From: an uncultured Alphaproteobacteria bacterium
GTDB lineage: Bacteria; Pseudomonadota; Alphaproteobacteria; HIMB59; GCA-002718135
NCBI GenBank assembly: GCA_902539825.1
Contig: CACBMH010000003.1
Span: 2,592-66,591, forward strand
Direction of reading: 5' to 3'
DNA length: 64,000 nucleotides
Shown here: positions 20,041 to 51,215 of the stretch, piece by piece
How the letters are laid out: each line of letters starts with the position of its first letter
Numbering within the stretch: the stretch's first letter is position 1
The notes under the pieces: generated by a model
What the model was told of the DNA's origin: nothing
Database searches by the model: none
The model's input: only the letters and a program-made list of their open reading frames with translations
Program-made: the position numbers and the translations under genes

Positions 20041-21525
20041 CTAAAAATTAAAATTTTTAGCAATTTTATTATTACTGTTATATAAATCTTTCCAAATTGA
20101 ATACCTTTGTAATAAAAGATCAATTTTATCTTCATTAGGTTCATAAGTTTTACTTATTTTTATTTCACTAATAATATTTTCTTTATTATCAATAGTAGCA
20201 TCCTGATACATTGCTAATCTTGCAACGCCAAGTGCGGCACCAAATTCGCTTTGATCACAAACACTTAACTTTCTATTTAAAAGTGCTGCAAGCAATTCAA
20301 TCCAAAATAAACTTTTTGAACCACCTCCAACCATAAATATTTTATCAAAGTTATTATTAACTTTCAAAATAGAATTTACTCCATCTAATATTCCAAAACT
20401 GACACCTTCAATTACTGCATACTGTAAATCTGTTGCATTTGTAGTTGTTTTTAAAGAATGGAGTGAACCTCTAATATGAGGATCATTATGTGGAGTCCTT
20501 TCTCCAGACAAATAAGGTAAAAAATATGATGAATTTTTTATAGAATTTTTATCATTATAAAATTGCTCTACATTATTAAGTGTATCAGCAATTGAAGTAT
20601 TGGTAATAGCGCAAATCCAATCTAAACAATTACTTGCACTTAACATAACGGACATAAGGTGCCATTTATTTGGTAAACAATGACAAAAAGAATGTACTGC
20701 ATCACCAGTATTACTTAAAAAATTTTCAGTGGGGGTAAAAAAAACGCCTGAAGTACCAAGAGATATAAATGATTGATTTTTATTTGTTATACCCATACCA
20801 GTTGCTGCAGCAGCATTATCCCCTGCTCCACCCACAACTTTAACATTATTATTAAAATTAAATTTCTCTTTTAAATCTTTTTTTAAAAATCCTGTCTGCT
20901 CATTGCCTTCAACTAGATCTGGCATGTGTTTTTCTTCTAAAAATGAGCAAGATAAAAGCTGATTGGACCATTTTCTTTTTTGGATATCTAGCCATAATGT
21001 TCCAGATGCATCTGACATTTCAGAAAAAAATTCACCAGTAAGAACAAATCGTAAATAATCTTTAGGGAGTAAAACTTTAAAAATTTTTTTAAAATTATCT
21101 ATTTCATTATTTTTTATCCAATTTATTTTTGGTGCAGTAAAACCAGGCATAGCAATATTTCCTGAGATTGATCGTACATCAAAATTTTGTTTTTCAAATT
21201 CTTCACACTCTTGATATGATCTTGTATCATTCCAAAGAATACATGGTCTAATAACATTTCCATCCTTATCTATTAACGTAGCTCCATGCATATGACCTGA
21301 TATTCCTATTGAAATAGTTTGTGAAAATTCTTTTGGTTTTTTTGACTTTAAAGCCTCCAAACATTCCATTGTTGAGTCAATCCATTCTTGTGGATTTTGT
21401 TCACTAAAACCATCTTTAGGTGATTGTACAGTAAGACTTGAATTAGCAGATGCAAGGATGCTTTGATTTTGATCTATTAAAATCATTTTGATTGATGAAG
21501 TTCCAAGATCAATTCCAATAAACAT
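20041..21525 (-). CDS. xylB: FGGY-family carbohydrate kinase, xylulokinase-like
   Basis: It has MFIGIDLGTSS, GISGHMHG, GGAGDNAAAA and MVGGGSKS motifs and is 494 aa. Confidence 0.8.
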   Translation of the reverse strand: MFIGIDLGTSSIKMILIDQNQSILASANSSLTVQSPKDGFSEQNPQEWIDSTMECLEALKSKKPKEFSQTISIGISGHMHGATLIDKDGNVIRPCILWNDTRSYQECEEFEKQNFDVRSISGNIAMPGFTAPKINWIKNNEIDNFKKIFKVLLPKDYLRFVLTGEFFSEMSDASGTLWLDIQKRKWSNQLLSCSFLEEKHMPDLVEGNEQTGFLKKDLKEKFNFNNNVKVVGGAGDNAAAATGMGITNKNQSFISLGTSGVFFTPTENFLSNTGDAVHSFCHCLPNKWHLMSVMLSASNCLDWICAITNTSIADTLNNVEQFYNDKNSIKNSSYFLPYLSGERTPHNDPHIRGSLHSLKTTTNATDLQYAVIEGVSFGILDGVNSILKVNNNFDKIFMVGGGSKSLFWIELLAALLNRKLSVCDQSEFGAALGVARLAMYQDATIDNKENIISEIKISKTYEPNEDKIDLLLQRYSIWKDLYNSNNKIAKNFNF

Positions 21526-31676: not shown

Positions 31677-33410
31677 TTAATGACTATGTCTTTTTACTTC
31701 AGCTCCTCTTTTTCCAATAAGAAAATCTAGATCTGCTCCTTTGTCAGCTTGCATAACATGCTCTACGTACATTTTTTGATAACCACCTGTGATTTCTGGA
31801 ACAACAGGTGAATAATTTTCTAGACGATTTTTTATTATTTCTTCATTGACTTTTAAGTTCATTATACCTTGATCAACATCTACTTCTATTTCATCACCAT
31901 TTTGAACTGCTGCTAAAGGACCTTTAACTGCAGCTTCTGGAGATGTATGAAGTATTACCGTACCGTATGCTGTACCACTCATTCTAGCGTCAGATATTCT
32001 AATCATATCTCTCACACCTTTTTTAAGAACTTTTTGTGGAAGACGCATATTACCTACTTCAGCCATACCAGGGTAACCCTTTGGCCCACAATTTTTTAAA
32101 ACTAATATTGAATTTTCATCAACGTCTAAATTGGGATCATCAATCTTTTCATGAAATTCTTCTACACTTTCAAAAACTACCGCTTTTCCAGTATGTTTCA
32201 TTAATTCTGGTGATGCAGCTGATGGTTTAATAATTGCACCATTTGGAGCAATATTACCCCTAAGAATTTTAATTCCTCCATTTTTTGTTAATGGATTTTC
32301 AAATTCTTTGATAACATCATTGTTCCAACATTTAGCATTTATATTATTCTCAGATATAGTTTTTCCATTAACAGTCATTTCATTTTCTTCTAATAGATTT
32401 TTTTCCATTAATCTTTTTATAACTACAGGAACACCACCTGCATAATAAAAATCTTCCATTAAGTATTTTCCAGAAGGTTGTAGATTTACTAATGTTGGAA
32501 TACCATCTCCACATTTATTCCAATCTTCTAAATCTAAATCTATTTCCATTCGACCTGCGATTGCAGCTAGATGGATAACTGCATTTGTAGATCCCCCTAT
32601 TGCTCCATTGACCTTGATTGCATTTTCAAATGATTTTTTTGTAACAATTTTTGACATAGTTATATCTTCCTTAACCATTTCAACAATTCTTTTTCCAGAC
32701 ATATGAGCTAAAGCATATCTTCTTGAGTCAACTGCAGGTATCGCAGCATTTCCAGGTAGTGACATCCCTAATGCTTCCACCATTGATCCCATTGTTGATG
32801 CGGTACCCATTGTCATACAATTACCTTTTGATCTACTCATTGAAATTTCTGCATTAATAAAATCTTCTTCTGTAATTACACCAGCGTTTAAATCTGCATC
32901 AAGTTTCCAAACACCAGTGCCAGAACCTATTGTTTCACCTTGATGGTGTCCATTAAGCATTGGGCCACCTGAAACACCTATTGTAGGAAGATCTACACTT
33001 GCAGCTCCCATCATTAATGAAGGTGTTGTTTTATCACATCCCATTAATAATACGACTCCGTCTATAGGATTACCCCTTATTGCCTCTTCAACATCCATAC
33101 TTGCTAAATTTCTAAACAACATAGCTGTAGGTCTTAAATTGGATTCACTTGCTGAAAAAACAGGAAATTCAAGAGGAAAACCACCAGCTTCATAAACACC
33201 TTTTTTAACAGACTCTGCTATCTCTCTGAAATGACCATTACAAGGAGTTAATTCAGACCATGTATTACAAATTCCAATTACAGGACGGCCATCAAACAAA
33301 TGATTTGGATGACCTTGATTTCTCATCCAGCCTCTATGAATAAATGTATCTCTTCGATGTGATTTAGAATTATACCAATTAGAAGATCTAAATTTATTTT
33401 TTTTATTCAT
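31677..33410 (-). CDS. IlvD/Edd-family dehydratase (aldonate dehydratase-like)
   Basis: It has CNGH, GCDKTTPS and GTASTM motifs. It is 577 aa, with an N-terminus like pentonate dehydratases. Confidence 0.85.
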   Translation of the reverse strand: MNKKNKFRSSNWYNSKSHRRDTFIHRGWMRNQGHPNHLFDGRPVIGICNTWSELTPCNGHFREIAESVKKGVYEAGGFPLEFPVFSASESNLRPTAMLFRNLASMDVEEAIRGNPIDGVVLLMGCDKTTPSLMMGAASVDLPTIGVSGGPMLNGHHQGETIGSGTGVWKLDADLNAGVITEEDFINAEISMSRSKGNCMTMGTASTMGSMVEALGMSLPGNAAIPAVDSRRYALAHMSGKRIVEMVKEDITMSKIVTKKSFENAIKVNGAIGGSTNAVIHLAAIAGRMEIDLDLEDWNKCGDGIPTLVNLQPSGKYLMEDFYYAGGVPVVIKRLMEKNLLEENEMTVNGKTISENNINAKCWNNDVIKEFENPLTKNGGIKILRGNIAPNGAIIKPSAASPELMKHTGKAVVFESVEEFHEKIDDPNLDVDENSILVLKNCGPKGYPGMAEVGNMRLPQKVLKKGVRDMIRISDARMSGTAYGTVILHTSPEAAVKGPLAAVQNGDEIEVDVDQGIMNLKVNEEIIKNRLENYSPVVPEITGGYQKMYVEHVMQADKGADLDFLIGKRGAEVKRHSH

Positions 33411-46922: not shown

Positions 46923-47297
46923 TTAATTTCTTGGACTCAACTTACTGAAATAAGACCCCTCTTTCTGTAACCAAGTATTAATCATATTGAAAAAGTTATT
47001 ACTTAAGTAATAATTTTTAATTCGCTTATCTGTTTTACTCTGTTCTTTAGTAAAAATATTTTTTTCCAAAGCCTCGTTTAGTATAGATTGAATAGATGAT
47101 CTTGAACCAATTGACTTTGGTATATTTGCACAAATTGTTTCAAATGAAATTCCGTTTAATCTATTATTTTCATAAATTTCTAATGAAATAACATGATGTA
47201 AAATTGATTTAAATAAAAATTTTGAAACATAATCTTCTGAAAAAAAACTGGAATATATATTTCTCTTTTTTTCTTTAATAATTTCTGTTTCTGTCAT
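46923..47297 (-). CDS. hypothetical protein with a possible winged-helix DNA-binding region
   Basis: The segment ISFETICANIPKSIGSRSSIQSILNEALEKNIF followed by a basic stretch (KTDKRIKNYYLS) looks like HTH plus wing. This is by-eye only. Confidence 0.45.
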   Translation of the reverse strand: MTETEIIKEKKRNIYSSFFSEDYVSKFLFKSILHHVISLEIYENNRLNGISFETICANIPKSIGSRSSIQSILNEALEKNIFTKEQSKTDKRIKNYYLSNNFFNMINTWLQKEGSYFSKLSPRN

Positions 47298-47325: not shown

Positions 47326-47349
47326 TTGGGAGAGCAAATGCTCTCCCAA
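47326..47349 (-). terminator. GC-rich hairpin downstream of amt (probable terminator)
   Basis: TTGGGAGAGC-ATTT-GCTCTCCCAA on the minus strand forms a 10-bp stem, an outlier in AT-rich spacer. It has no long U tract. Confidence 0.55.
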
Positions 47350-47397: not shown

Positions 47398-48684
47398 TTA
47401 GTCTCTGATGCTGTAAGCCATTACGCCTACTTCAGATTTATCTGTTCCAAGTTTTTCAGCCTCTTCACTAATTCTAATACCAAAGAGCATTTTCATGATG
47501 TACCAAATAATAAATGATACAACAAAAACGAAAACATTAATTGCTATTATACCGTAGAGTTGAGCTCCAAAACTTGCAGCACTGTTTGAAATCGGAACAA
47601 CTAATGTTCCAAAAATTCCAGCAAAACCGTGAACAGGAATTGCACCTACAACGTCATCAATTTTTAGAGATATTAAAAGTCTAGTACCGTAGAAGACAAT
47701 TAAACCACCAACTGCACCAATGATTATTGCTAAAATTGGTGATGGAGCTAATGGTTCTGCTGTAATTGCTACTAGACCACCTAATGCACCATTAAGCATC
47801 ATAACAACATCTGTTTTACCAGTTACTAGTCTTGAAATTACTGCACAAGCCATTACTCCTGCACCAGCTGCCAAGTTAGTATTAATATATATTGTTGCTA
47901 CTGCTGTAACATCATCAAATGTACCCATTGCAAGTTGTGATCCACCATTAAATCCGAACCATCCAAGCCATAGGATAAATACACCAAGAGTTGCAAGAGG
48001 TATTGAAGAATTTGCAAAAGGCTCCATTGGAGCTGCTTCACCACTATCAGTGAACCTTCCTAATCTTGGGCCTAATAAAATTGCACCAGCAAGTGCTGCT
48101 GCTGCTCCTGCACTATGTACTAGAGTTGAACCAGCAAAATCTGAGAAACCAGCTTCCGCTAAGTATCCTCCGCCCCACTGCCAACCCATTTCTATTGGAT
48201 AAATGAAACCAGTTAATAAAGCACAAAAAATAAAGAATGGCCAAATTTTAATTCTTTCAGCTAGTGTTCCAGATACAATTGAGCAAGTTGTTGCACAAAA
48301 TACCATCTGAAAGAACCAGTCAGAACCATCTGAATACCCTGTATCGACAGCACTACCATCACTCCAAGGAATTGGAGATCCAATAAATCCACCAGCGGGT
48401 ATACCGTAAGCCATATTGTATCCGACTAACCAAAACATTATTCCTGCAATTGAATACAAGCCGATGTTTTTAGCTGCAATTGTTGCTACACTTTTTGATG
48501 TAACAAGTCCTGATTCAAGCATTGCAAATCCTGCTGCCATCCACATGACTAAGAACCCAGATACAAGAAATAGGAAAGTATTTAATATGTATTGCACTTC
48601 ACCATCTACCTCTGCTCTTGCGTATGAACTAAAGAGTAAGAAGACAGTTACAATGCCAATGAAATATATAGATTTTTTTAACAT
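47398..48684 (-). CDS. amt: ammonium transporter (Amt family)
   Basis: It has signal peptide-like N-terminus, about 11 TM helices and Amt motifs (DFAGSTLVHSAG, VHGFAGIFGTL). I moved the start to the ATG at 48684 (MLKKS...), preceded by GGAGG. No glnK gene is adjacent. Confidence 0.9.
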   Translation of the reverse strand: MLKKSIYFIGIVTVFLLFSSYARAEVDGEVQYILNTFLFLVSGFLVMWMAAGFAMLESGLVTSKSVATIAAKNIGLYSIAGIMFWLVGYNMAYGIPAGGFIGSPIPWSDGSAVDTGYSDGSDWFFQMVFCATTCSIVSGTLAERIKIWPFFIFCALLTGFIYPIEMGWQWGGGYLAEAGFSDFAGSTLVHSAGAAAALAGAILLGPRLGRFTDSGEAAPMEPFANSSIPLATLGVFILWLGWFGFNGGSQLAMGTFDDVTAVATIYINTNLAAGAGVMACAVISRLVTGKTDVVMMLNGALGGLVAITAEPLAPSPILAIIIGAVGGLIVFYGTRLLISLKIDDVVGAIPVHGFAGIFGTLVVPISNSAASFGAQLYGIIAINVFVFVVSFIIWYIMKMLFGIRISEEAEKLGTDKSEVGVMAYSIRD

Positions 48685-48776
48685 TAATCCTCCATTATAA
48701 ATTTCACAGTACATGGCTCACACTGAGTCATGTGTTACTTTTCATGCTTAGCTATGGAAATTAATTACTAAGATCC

Positions 48777-48828
48777 GCGTTCCTTCGGTTTAACCTACTT
48801 CCGATTTGCAAACTGCAAATTGAACGAT
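48777..48828 (-). promoter_or_regulatory. glutamine riboswitch aptamer (glnA RNA motif), promoter-distal copy
   Basis: The minus strand reads TCGTTCA ATTTGCA-GTT-TGCAAAT CGGAAGTAG GTTAAAC CGAAGGAACGC. It keeps the conserved CGGAAGUAG and GAAGGAACG blocks and the CGUUC/GAACG closing helix. Confidence 0.85.
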
Positions 48829-48843
48829 TTTATAACTTTGCAT

Positions 48844-48896
48844 GCGTTCCTTCGACATTCGTCTACTTCCGTCATTCAATAAGAATGATGAACGTA
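48844..48896 (-). promoter_or_regulatory. glutamine riboswitch aptamer (glnA RNA motif), promoter-proximal copy
   Basis: The minus strand reads ACGTTCA TCATTC-TTATT-GAATGA CGGAAGTAG ACGAATGT CGAAGGAACGC. The architecture matches the other copy, with a compensatory change in the internal hairpin. Confidence 0.85.
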
Positions 48897-48998
48897 ATGC
48901 TGATTTACTTTATTATTAAAATTTATTAAGAATATTTAAGTAAAGTTTGCTATGCATTTTTTGCATGAATAAAAAAATACAAGAAAACTTAGGAAAAT

Positions 48999-50150
48999 TC
49001 ATATAACTTCAGATAAATTTATCCACTTTGAGTCTTTTGTACTAGAATCGACACTTGCGTTTATAAACTTCATTATGTGTAAACCATCGTCAATATTTGG
49101 AAGAAGCTTTAGTAATTCCTCTTTATTTTCCTTATTTTGGATAACATCTGCAGCATCAGAGTAAATTTGTGCAAATGCTTCAAGATACCCTTCTGGATGA
49201 CCTGCAGGGATTCTAACATTAGCTTCAGTTCCCTCAACTTTAATTGAACCACCTCTAGTTATTATCTGGCTTGCCTCCCCTACTTGACTAAATGTTGCAT
49301 AATTTGGATTTTCTTGACTCCATTTTAATGCACCCTTGTCACCATAAATAGCTACAGTAAAATTATTTTCTTCACCTGTCGCAACTTGAGAAATAGATAA
49401 TGATCCTTTAGCGCCATTATTTAATCTGATCATAATTGAAGCATCATCATCTAATTTTCTTCCTTCAACAAAAGTTGTAAGATCTGCACTAACTGATTGC
49501 AATTTTAATTGAGTTATAAATTCTAACAAATGCATAGTATGACTACCAATATCACCTACTCCTCCTGCGGCCCCACTTCGTGAAGGATCAGTTCTCCATT
49601 CTGCTTGTTTATTTGAACCTGTGTCTTCTTCTTTTGAGCCGAGCCAGCCTTGAAGATATGATCCTTTAACAATTCTTATTTTGCCAAGTGCTCCACTTTC
49701 AATAAGTGATCTCATAACTCTAACGACTGGATAACCGGAATAATTATGAGTTAAGAAAAAATGAGCATCAGATTTAGAAACTGCATCAACTAATTTATGA
49801 GCATCTTCCATTGTAGAGGTCATAGGTTTGTCACAAATGACATGAATATTTTTATTTAGAAATTCAATTGCTGGTGCAGCATGCATATGATTTGGTGTAA
49901 CAATAGATACTACATCAATACCATCATCTCTTTTAGCTTCTTCCTCAGCCATAGTTTTAAAATCAGGGTAACTTCTTGAAGGATCGAGACCAATTTCTTC
50001 AGCAGATTTTGCAGCTTTTTCAGGGGTTGAAGATAAACAACCAGCAACAAATTCATATTTATCATCCATTCGTGCACATAGACGATGAACAGCTCCTATA
50101 AAAGCTCCTTGGCCACCACCTATCATTCCTAATTTTAATCTTTTTGTCAT
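48999..50150 (-). CDS. Gfo/Idh/MocA-family oxidoreductase
   Basis: It has an N-terminal Rossmann fold (LGMIGGGQGAFIG) and CDKPM (EKP-type) motif and is 383 aa. Confidence 0.85.
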   Translation of the reverse strand: MTKRLKLGMIGGGQGAFIGAVHRLCARMDDKYEFVAGCLSSTPEKAAKSAEEIGLDPSRSYPDFKTMAEEEAKRDDGIDVVSIVTPNHMHAAPAIEFLNKNIHVICDKPMTSTMEDAHKLVDAVSKSDAHFFLTHNYSGYPVVRVMRSLIESGALGKIRIVKGSYLQGWLGSKEEDTGSNKQAEWRTDPSRSGAAGGVGDIGSHTMHLLEFITQLKLQSVSADLTTFVEGRKLDDDASIMIRLNNGAKGSLSISQVATGEENNFTVAIYGDKGALKWSQENPNYATFSQVGEASQIITRGGSIKVEGTEANVRIPAGHPEGYLEAFAQIYSDAADVIQNKENKEELLKLLPNIDDGLHIMKFINASVDSSTKDSKWINLSEVI

Positions 50151-50162
50151 TTAAATTCCCTC

Positions 50163-51215
50163 CTAAATACCTAAAAGTTTTTTATTAGTTTCTTCATCCA
50201 TTCCTGAGTCAGCAAAATCATCAAAAGCTTTTTCAGTTACATCGATGATATGTTCTTTTATAAATTTTGCACCTTCTTCTGCCCCTTGTTGTGGACTTTT
50301 TATACAACATTCCCATTCTAGAACTGCCCAGCCATCAAAATTATAACCAGATAGTTTTGAAAAAATAGATTTAAAGTCAACCTGACCATCTCCTAATGAT
50401 CTAAATCTACCTGCTCTATTAATCCATGATTGAAAACCTCTGTATACACCTTGTTTCCCACTTGGATTTAATTCGGCATCTTTTACATGAAACATTTTTA
50501 ATTTGTCATGATAGATATCAATATGATCTAAATAATTTAAATGTTGAAGAATAAAATGACTTGGATCATATAGCATATTACATCTTGAATGATTACCAAC
50601 CTTTTCTAAAAACATTTCAAAAGTAATGCCATCATGGAGGTCTTCACCAGGATGAATTTCATAACAAAGATCAACTCCAGCTTCGTCAAATTTATTTAAA
50701 ATTGGTTTCCATCTTTTTGCAAGTTCATTAAAAGCTTCATCTACTAATCCTTCTGGTCTTTGAGGCCATGGATATAAATATGGCCAAGCTAGTGCACCAG
50801 AAAAAGTTGCATGTGCATTTAGTCCAAAGTTCTTTGAAGCCATTGCTGCTTGCATTAATTGATCAATGGCCCATTCTTTTCTTTTACTTGGATTGCCTCT
50901 TACTTTTTCATCTGCAAATCCATCAAAAGGAATATCGTATGCAGGATGAACAGCAACAAGCTGACCTTGAAGGTGAGTAGATAGCTCTGTGAGTTGTAAA
51001 TTATTATTTTCAAGAATTCCTTTTATATCATCACAATAATCTTTACTTTCAGATGCTTTTTTTAAATCTATTAATCTTGAATCCCAAGAAGGTATCTGTA
51101 CGCCTTTATATCCTAAATTAGAAGCCCATTTTGATATTGACTCTAAGGAGTTAAAAGGTTCATCATCACTTACAAATTGGGCAAGAAATATTGCAGGGCC
51201 TTTTATTTTTTTCAT
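50163..51215 (-). CDS. xylose-isomerase-like TIM-barrel (sugar phosphate isomerase/epimerase family) protein
   Basis: It is 350 aa. By-eye features of the AP_endonuc_2 fold include YEIHPGE and HVKD metal-ligand-like motifs. It is paired with the downstream Gfo/Idh/MocA gene. Confidence 0.7.
   Translation of the reverse strand: MKKIKGPAIFLAQFVSDDEPFNSLESISKWASNLGYKGVQIPSWDSRLIDLKKASESKDYCDDIKGILENNNLQLTELSTHLQGQLVAVHPAYDIPFDGFADEKVRGNPSKRKEWAIDQLMQAAMASKNFGLNAHATFSGALAWPYLYPWPQRPEGLVDEAFNELAKRWKPILNKFDEAGVDLCYEIHPGEDLHDGITFEMFLEKVGNHSRCNMLYDPSHFILQHLNYLDHIDIYHDKLKMFHVKDAELNPSGKQGVYRGFQSWINRAGRFRSLGDGQVDFKSIFSKLSGYNFDGWAVLEWECCIKSPQQGAEEGAKFIKEHIIDVTEKAFDDFADSGMDEETNKKLLGI

Follow-up and report, generated by a model that had tools for sequence, protein, structure and literature searches.

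Tandem glutamine riboswitch aptamers and a conserved expression platform in the leader of an ammonium transporter gene from a Pelagibacteraceae-like marine bacterium

Results

The DNA analysed here, which we call the window, is a stretch of 64,000 nucleotides (nt) from contig CACBMH010000003.1 of an uncultured alphaproteobacterium. On its minus strand lies amt (47398-48684), encoding an Amt-family ammonium transporter of 428 amino acids (aa; Pfam PF00909, E 1.3e-97), and in the 5' leader of this nitrogen-metabolism gene, on the same strand, are two tandem RNA aptamers of the glutamine riboswitch family. The amt frame is open from 48714, and public gene calls start at the ATG at 48682-48684, which is preceded by a Shine-Dalgarno (SD) sequence and yields the 428-aa protein. 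The whole window was compared with 4227 Rfam families using cmscan at the curated gathering thresholds, and RF01739 (glutamine riboswitch, glnA leader) was the sole family matched, with two matches on the minus strand. Aptamer 1 (match 48841-48896) scores 62.1 bits with E 2.5e-11, and aptamer 2 (match 48774-48828) scores 59.7 bits with E 1.2e-10; both matches span model positions 1-53 of 53, and both scores are nearly twice the RF01739 gathering score of 35 bits. A preliminary description of this DNA, made from its letters without database searches, had proposed two tandem glnA-type glutamine aptamers in the amt leader and had named a search with RF01739 as the check; the pair is borne out, with both copies above the gathering threshold. 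A local E-value scan of the leader left the RF01739 result unchanged. The Downstream-peptide model (glutamine-II, RF01704) gave no match at E <= 10 in 48600-49000, and a permissive local scan of the leader for other Rfam families yielded nothing credible besides RF01739.

Measured from P1 to P1, aptamer 1 occupies 48845-48894 and aptamer 2 occupies 48778-48826, both on the minus strand. The blocks CGUUCA, CGGAAGUAG and CGAAGGAACGC are identical in the two copies, as had been read from the letters, and the P2 hairpins are unlike in sequence yet paired in each (UCAUUC/GAAUGA and AUUUGCA/UGCAAAU). Other details of that reading needed adjustment. The third stem (P3) had been drawn with two base pairs (bp) in one copy and one in the other, and has 3 bp in each, GAC-GAAU-GUC and GGU-UAA-ACC. 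The tandem arrangement stands, but the gap between the aptamers is not the roughly 15 nt that had been given, the P1 helices lying 18 nt apart. The estimate that the structured region ends about 90 nt before amt was close, since aptamer 2 stops 92 nt upstream of the ATG.

The junction nucleotides CGGAAGUAG and GAAGGAACG, which belong to the ligand pocket and the E-loop, match the Rfam consensus in both copies and are invariant or nearly so among 82 related aptamers, in which the fixed junction strings read CGGAAGUA(G/A) and (G/A)A(G/A)GGAACGC. These 82 unique aptamers have 53 distinct P2 stems, always complementary. RNAalifold, applied to 40 unique aptamers of this leader type, recovers P1, P2 and P3 with compensatory changes in 7 of 12 pairs: the five pairs of P1 are invariant, and compensatory double changes occur in 4 of 4 pairs of P2 and 3 of 3 pairs of P3. 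This covariation supports the aptamer fold and agrees with the paired reading of the two P2 hairpins. An extension of the P1 helix of aptamer 1 by GCAU/AUGC, which can be seen in the window, is not kept in relatives and was set aside. From these comparisons, there is very little doubt that both units are type-1 glutamine riboswitch (glnA-motif) aptamers, which we predict to bind glutamine, and it is highly probable that the pair regulates amt in cis.

The pair is retained in every syntenic relative examined. A tandem RF01739 pair precedes every amt copy, second copies included, at 18 of 18 syntenic loci (52 matches, 57-66 bits); the relatives that keep the element have Amt proteins that are 66-97% identical, and their P2 and P3 stems carry compensatory changes. 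One could suppose that the two matches are chance resemblances, or decayed relics without a regulatory role. The whole-window E-values given above, the retention of the pair over this range of Amt divergence with compensatory changes in P2 and P3, and the intact duplication of the riboswitch-amt module all speak against such a view, which appears refuted by the conservation and to which we give next to no weight. In relatives whose Amt is 82% identical, a second amt copy is inserted after the small open reading frame (ORF) that follows amt. In many close relatives the riboswitch and amt have been duplicated as a whole module, placing four glutamine aptamers within about 2.1 kb; among the loci (L handles are our own) the duplicated modules are found at 4830-4951 in L089 and at 4289-4407 in L091-L093 and L095-L098.

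Conservation of the element follows the locus, not the gene family. The pair is present at only one (L015) of the 40 amt loci that are closest among species-representative genomes. The loci without it share no flanking gene with the window, except L012, which has the downstream genes in common with the window but whose contig breaks off in the upstream region. We therefore rejected the idea that the riboswitch stands before all SAR11 amt genes, as 1 of the 40 closest loci carries the pair; it marks one amt locus type.

Between the aptamers and the start codon, the leaders of amt, of the glutamine synthetase I gene (GSI glnA) and of genes for COG2308-like proteins share a five-part platform that small-ORF and phage leaders lack. 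The first part is a linker of 12-17 nt between the two aptamers that begins AUGC(A/U)A..GUUA; in the window it reads CAUGCAAAGUUAUAAAAU (48827-48844, minus strand, as for all leader features below) and is complementary to 48743-48755, which makes it the proposed 5' strand of a helix that we call P0. The second is a short variable joining segment after aptamer 2, J (CGGAUCUUAGUAAUUAA, 48761-48777), in which GGA(U/A) is conserved in amt-type leaders. The third is a near-invariant trailer motif, X (UUUCCAUAGCUAAGCAUGA, 48742-48760), which reads UUUCCAUAGCUA(A/C)GCAUGA in amt and COG2308 leaders and UUUCAUAACUAGAGCAUGA in glnA leaders. The 5' part of X is anti-SD-like, and the 3' part, which holds an invariant AUG (48743-48745), would supply the 3' strand of P0. 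In models with the aptamers held folded, the GGA of J pairs weakly with the UCC of X. The fourth part is a hairpin, H (48711-48733), situated between X and the ribosome-binding site. The fifth is (A/G)UGGAG(G), 6-9 nt before the AUG, which in the window encloses the strong amt SD sequence GGAGG, read from the sequence at 48689-48693. The linker and X go together: in a sample collected by an exact-pattern scan (aptamer 3' end, short gap, 5' half of the next aptamer), which is independent of X, all 40 of 40 leaders of the AUGC-linker and X type have both elements, and X is present in 0 of 79 other tandem pairs.

As drawn, P0 consists of CAUGC:GCAUG and AGUUAU:AUAGCU separated by a 2x2 or 3x3 A-rich internal loop, and it would bracket aptamer 2. 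Over 30 unique constructs its strands can pair in 94.8% of cells, versus 13-38% in slid registers, and their variation is one-sided only (U-G to U-A, A-U to G-U). With both aptamers constrained to their folds, 47 of 50 leaders have P0 in the minimum-free-energy structure, against 36 of 50 in unconstrained modelling; the mean energy of the duplex is -11 kcal/mol. Both strands are conserved more strictly than pairing alone requires. What is established for P0 is a conserved complementarity and not a proven structure, and we put the helix forward as a proposal.

Hairpin H is a different case. All 39 unique versions fold into a hairpin of 8-13 bp with different stem sequences, and RNAalifold finds 10 pairs, six of them with compensatory changes, so that by comparative analysis the hairpin can be called proven in the usual sense. 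It is AU-rich and is followed by (A/U)GUGAAAUUUAU, with no U-tract. Most variants retain a GGU(G/U)A-like motif in the loop of H, in place of which the window has GUGUGAG; no pairing partner or binding factor was identified for it. A scan for terminator-like sites found no intrinsic terminator (a GC-rich hairpin with a U-tract) on the minus strand of the leader. With no terminator-like site between the aptamers and the start codon, the leader does not fit a terminator-type riboswitch, which makes control of translation initiation the most likely mode; we consider it probable that control acts at the translational level.

It is also conceivable that genuine aptamers are read out by something other than SD access, such as Rho-dependent termination, access of an RNase, or translation of an upstream ORF (uORF) starting at the AUG in X, any of which could set amt mRNA or coupled translation. 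Such a read-out would accommodate the invariance of this AUG, which is kept in 30 of 30 unique constructs and falls within the proposed 3' strand of P0, as well as the excess conservation of the P0 strands, the retention of P0 and H in leader sub-types without the anti-SD stretch, and the conserved GGU motif in the loop of H. It sits poorly with the lack of any terminator-like hairpin with a U-tract in the leader, and with the uORF itself, which in relatives has no SD sequence and no conserved peptide. We regard this class of explanation as improbable. The uORF of the window is short (48728-48745, minus strand, MKSNT*), and those of relatives have 2-13 or more codons. A conserved peptide encoded from this AUG was considered and rejected, because length and residues vary and substitutions fall at first and second codon positions.

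The exact-pattern scan also shows how widely the arrangement is used. It returned tandem pairs on 59 contigs of viral origin and on at least 120 from metagenomes, and the GC content of all scanned tandem contigs is 27-36%. The first downstream ORF is amt in 29, plus at least three with a variant aptamer 2; it is GSI glutamine synthetase in nine (L166, L200, L204, L219, L222, L227, L230, L258, L265) and a COG2308-like protein of 468 aa in five (L194, L237, L244, L257, L260). In three more (L164, L224, L241) it is glutamine synthetase II (GSII), where the tandem aptamers come with a different, GC-richer linker and trailer. Most of the remaining contigs have an ORF of 50-67 aa starting 20-28 nt past the aptamers. 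In all, the arrangement stands before at least 33 amt genes on metagenome contigs, besides the nine GSI and five COG2308-like genes. The leader design common to amt and, on related low-GC marine contigs, to GSI glnA and COG2308-like genes suggests a set of genes that behaves like a small RNA-based nitrogen regulon.

The phage and small-ORF tandem riboswitches (IMG/VR; Pelagibacter and OM43 phages, PMC9004378) resemble the amt leader in being RF01739-type, tandem, and found in marine streamlined hosts or their phages. They differ in having AUUAUCAU-like linkers of 8-10 nt and no X, in placing an SD-sequestering hairpin directly after P1, and in their targets, ORFs of 50-67 aa. On the 59 IMG/VR viral contigs (L099-L157) this hairpin takes forms such as CACCU...AGGAGGGUG, and the pair usually precedes ORFs of 50-67 or about 145-153 aa.

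Upstream of the aptamers, at 48952-48966, is a perfect palindrome, ATGCA-N5-TGCAT, that occurs once in the window. It lies 72 to 74 nt upstream of aptamer 1 in 35 of 68 unique leaders, versus 9 of 13600 shuffled upstream regions (0.07%). The palindrome stands before first-copy amt and COG2308 genes and is absent before glnA and second-copy amt, the second-copy leaders keeping P0, X and H. A weak -10-like AATAAT is present at 48912-48917; taken as the -10 element, it would put the centre of the palindrome near -56, an activator-like position. The palindrome is probably an operator for a dimeric transcription factor, which would add a transcriptional input to amt. The preliminary description had cast the riboswitch as the main nitrogen-status input for ammonium uptake, and this claim is weakened by a conserved operator-like palindrome at a fixed distance upstream. 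A third half-site, GCATA, is often found further upstream of the palindrome.

Downstream of amt is a 124-aa ORF (46923-47297, minus strand) that is conserved in synteny, restricted to the lineage and without a Pfam family. It has a sub-threshold match to SarA/Rot (E 0.043). An AlphaFold model of low confidence (predicted local distance difference test score, pLDDT, 63) gives weak structural matches (E 0.006-0.1), and the top 50 in the PDB are all MarR/SarA-family winged-helix regulators. We speculate, from this model, that the product of the 124-aa ORF could be a candidate binder of the palindrome.

Discussion

Having found that two glutamine aptamers share one conserved platform, the next question is what glutamine does to amt expression. 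The explanation that we find best overall, at somewhat better than even odds, is that the amt leader is a composite, translationally acting switch of glutamine-OFF type. The two aptamers would form one leader with a single expression platform, in which the linker pairs with X to make P0 around aptamer 2, P0 is flanked at its other end by P1 of aptamer 1, a constitutive H follows, and the amt SD sequence and start codon come last. At low glutamine, the unfolded aptamer core GGAAGU would occupy the UUUCC of X, leaving the SD sequence free so that Amt is made. With glutamine bound, both aptamers would fold and release UUUCC(AU), which, stacked on P0, would pair with AUGGAGG as a pseudoknot and block ribosome entry. 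The outcome would be glutamine feedback repression of ammonium uptake. The UUUCCAU of X has three potential partners, AUGGAGG, the aptamer core GGAAGU and, weakly, the GGA of J, a layout that fits an OFF switch. When the window leader is folded without constraints, its minimum-free-energy structure has GGAAGU of aptamer 2 paired with AUUUCC, stacked on P0, and pairing of UUUCCAU with AUGGAGG is possible in 88% of cells, with the window duplex extending to 12 bp at -8.6 kcal/mol.

The direction of the switch is nonetheless argued from physiology and not from structure. Ammonium uptake by Amt and ammonium assimilation by GSI and GSII are nitrogen-scavenging functions, and established regulons repress them at high glutamine. 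We favour OFF logic, with fair but limited confidence, because the same leader design precedes ammonium uptake and GSI genes, where positive glutamine feedback would be perverse; the tandem aptamers before GSII, with their different linker and trailer, were counted toward the same physiological argument. The tested ON switches control an inhibitor of glutamine synthetase (PMC6212724), and ON action there has the same physiological outcome as OFF action here.

A number of results weigh against this explanation. Compensatory change in P0 is lacking, with 0 double-sided changes over the 30 constructs and shuffles not exceeded, and pairing between X and the SD region (X:SD) shows a single double-sided change, again not above shuffles. 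Native X:SD duplexes average -6.8 kcal/mol versus -7.0 kcal/mol for cross-pairings between different leaders, and 4216 of 5000 permutations do as well. There is no covariation proof for either P0 or X:SD because the sequences are too conserved. The glnA-type leaders have a weak X:SD (-2.7 to -5.2 kcal/mol). Sub-types L245, L184 and L173, as well as L091b, have none, yet these retain P0 and H. Nested models with folded aptamers leave the SD sequence mostly unpaired, which favours ON, in a tool that cannot model a pseudoknot. Finally, both experimentally tested glutamine riboswitches are ON (PMC6212724), and the SAR11 strain HTCC1062 has an Amt paralog that it produces only when nitrogen is replete, its mRNA remaining unchanged (PMC3870248), so an ON-type Amt is not absurd. 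Thermodynamic modelling of bound versus unbound states in 50 leaders gave no consistent change in SD accessibility, the proposed pseudoknot being outside the scope of the tool. An extended J/X:SD helix that looked compensatory by eye in L186 and L247 (-12 kcal/mol) was rejected, the native-versus-cross test being negative.

The most serious alternative is one in which the same aptamers control translation in cis and glutamine turns amt ON, as in the cyanobacterial gifB switch. With glutamine present, folded aptamers would favour P0, the P1 helix of aptamer 1 stacking on it and a closed aptamer 2 shortening the loop that it encloses; P0 would then tie up X and leave the SD sequence accessible. 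In the absence of glutamine, X or the unpaired CGUUCAU strands would bind (A/G)UGGAG and prevent initiation. This Amt would then be a nitrogen-replete paralog serving, for example, ammonia equilibration or efflux, and SAR11_1310 of HTCC1062, the Amt detected in nitrogen-replete cells only, offers a precedent. The higher frequency of P0 in minimum-free-energy folds when the aptamers are held folded is in line with such a switch, and so is the pairing of X with the SD region that appears in roughly half of the leaders once the linker is made unavailable. It is difficult to reconcile with the platform standing also before GSI glnA, and tandem aptamers before GSII, where activation at high glutamine would amount to positive feedback. 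The platform is also unlike that of the short-linker phage and small-ORF type, whose SD hairpin adjoins P1, and X:SD covariation is absent, which an ON switch of this design would share as a difficulty. We consider glutamine-ON unlikely, if well short of negligible.

Returning to the glutamine-OFF explanation, we can ask how the pieces might fit together. In a joint reading that we offer only tentatively, the amt, glnA and COG2308 leaders would be a distinct tandem subclass in which P0 joins the two aptamers into a glutamine-OFF translational switch. This switch would stand in for the missing PII and NtrBC as the sensor of a small regulon of ammonium uptake and glutamine synthesis in SAR11-like streamlined heterotrophs, and would act together with a MarR-like factor at the -73 palindrome.

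Much of what is found here has been seen before. Weinberg et al. 2010 (PMC2864571) described glnA RNAs before ammonium transporters, glutamine synthetase, glutamate synthase (GOGAT) and PII genes, "some in tandem", in cyanobacteria and marine metagenomes. The literature background of the preliminary description proved accurate: glnA RNAs commonly come in tandem and lie before nitrogen genes, ammonium transporters among them (PMC2864571), and the only tested switches turn expression ON (PMC6212724). The environmental tandem glnA RNAs (Weinberg et al. 2010, PMC2864571; Ames & Breaker 2011) are like the amt leader in architecture, invariant nucleotides, tandem form, position in the 5' leader of a nitrogen gene and marine source, and this locus almost certainly belongs to the "marine metagenome" amt-associated class of 2010. 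That class was without an assigned organism, whereas the amt leader described here belongs to a Pelagibacteraceae-like genome and recurs in many single-cell genomes. The transporter and glutamine synthetase associations were confirmed by Klahn et al. 2018 for environmental DNA only, and among sequenced genomes they considered the riboswitch exclusive to cyanobacteria (PMC6212724), a restriction repeated in the Bolay 2018 review (PMC6316151). RF01739 matches have since been noted in SAR86 metagenome-assembled genomes and pelagiphages (PMC12379486, PMC9004378). The range given in that literature is cyanobacterial genomes or unassigned marine DNA, and the host here is non-cyanobacterial, which widens the known host range and leaves membership of the RNA family unaffected. 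In the literature collection that we searched, we found no paper describing a glutamine riboswitch before amt in a Pelagibacterales genome. The riboswitch class, the tandem form and the amt association are already known; the host assignment and the description of the platform appear to be new.

Comparison with better-studied switches shows both what is shared and what is not. Synechocystis gifB, the only type-1 switch tested in vivo (PMC6212724), shares the aptamer class and the use of glutamine as nitrogen-status signal, and post-transcriptional control at translation is probable in both. The gifB leader has a single aptamer, precedes the gene for a glutamine synthetase-inactivating factor and is glutamine-ON, while the amt leader carries two aptamers followed by a trailer of 92 nt with X, H and the proposed P0, and is predicted from the physiology of its target to be OFF. 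For tandem glutamine riboswitches Ruff et al. 2016 noted that neither an expression platform nor a benefit of the tandem arrangement had been identified (PMC5066625), in contrast to the conserved platform seen in the amt leader; tandem glutamine aptamers reportedly bind non-cooperatively, as cited in the same paper. The tandem glycine riboswitch (PMC5066625) offers a parallel, in that two like aptamers share a platform and the linker is proposed to pair with a flank, giving a helix that organises both domains. The glycine linker pairs with the 5' leader, as established experimentally, whereas the amt linker would pair with the 3' trailer, a proposal drawn from complementarity. The glycine riboswitch has a kink-turn; there is no evidence for one in the amt leader, or for contacts between its aptamers.

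The question of why this leader matters leads back to nitrogen sensing. How SAR11-type bacteria without PII, GlnD and NtrBC sense nitrogen has been an open question since the 2013 study of HTCC1062, in which Smith et al. reported that SAR11 generally lack PII and NtrBC and speculated on riboswitch control of Amt paralogs (PMC3870248). The element itself adds a firm and well-conserved case to a riboswitch class already known and is not a new kind of element. What the locus adds is that associations with amt and glutamine synthetase genes, which the cyanobacterial literature has treated as curiosities of unassigned environmental DNA, are placed in an abundant Pelagibacteraceae-like lineage, where a single leader design stands before genes for ammonium uptake and for glutamine synthetase. 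The locus makes nitrogen sensing in marine heterotrophs without PII directly testable, and it supplies elements that can be mutated, namely P0, X, H and the -73 palindrome. If OFF logic proves true, this would be the first repressing glutamine riboswitch, and the platform would provide a rationale, and a first function, for the tandem arrangement.

The gene order around amt is fixed: GATase, AP_endonuc_2, a GFO/IDH/MocA oxidoreductase, a gap of about 300 nt, amt, the 124-aa ORF and a 63-aa ORF, beyond which lie DUF179 on the opposite strand and then DsbD. The identical 428-aa Amt protein is indexed in 160 blocks of a public collection, including several single-cell genome contigs. The preliminary description had noted that amt has no PII partner gene, and this holds within the 64-kb window, the range for which it is established: no PII-like ORF was found beside amt or elsewhere in the window, a Pfam scan of the neighbours giving none and tblastn with approximate Escherichia coli GlnB and GlnK query sequences giving a best E of 5.6. 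It had also called the aptamer region the only GC-rich structured non-coding stretch of the window, which is refuted by a GC-rich 10-bp hairpin, UUGGGAGAGC-AUUU-GCUCUCCCAA, between the amt stop codon and the 124-aa ORF (47326-47349, minus strand); the terminator-like scan picked up its palindromic stem on the plus strand. This hairpin is likely the 3' end of the amt transcript, its putative terminator role going with a U-tail that is weak, with no clear U-tract.

The host can be placed in outline. The window is about 30% GC throughout and carries ordinary chromosomal genes (purL, purF, smc, ctaD, thrC, and genes for a xylulokinase and a dihydroxy-acid/arabinonate-type dehydratase); it contains no rRNA or tRNA genes. 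The closest relatives of Amt are in Pelagibacteraceae single-cell genomes, and the only label comes from NCBI, where "Pelagibacteraceae bacterium" is given for a protein with 98% identity to the product of the neighbouring 124-aa ORF. We take the DNA to come from a marine alphaproteobacterium that is AT-rich, streamlined and Pelagibacteraceae-like, which is as exact a placement as our analysis reached. Genes of sugar catabolism are found at 20041-21525, 31677-33410 and 48999-51215, encoding a xylulokinase, a dihydroxy-acid/L-arabinonate-type dehydratase, the GFO/IDH/MocA oxidoreductase and a xylose-isomerase-like TIM-barrel protein. Canonical SAR11 Ia genomes do not usually carry such genes, and the host may thus be a member of a different Pelagibacterales subclade or of the AEGEAN-169/HIMB59 group (PMC10308909).

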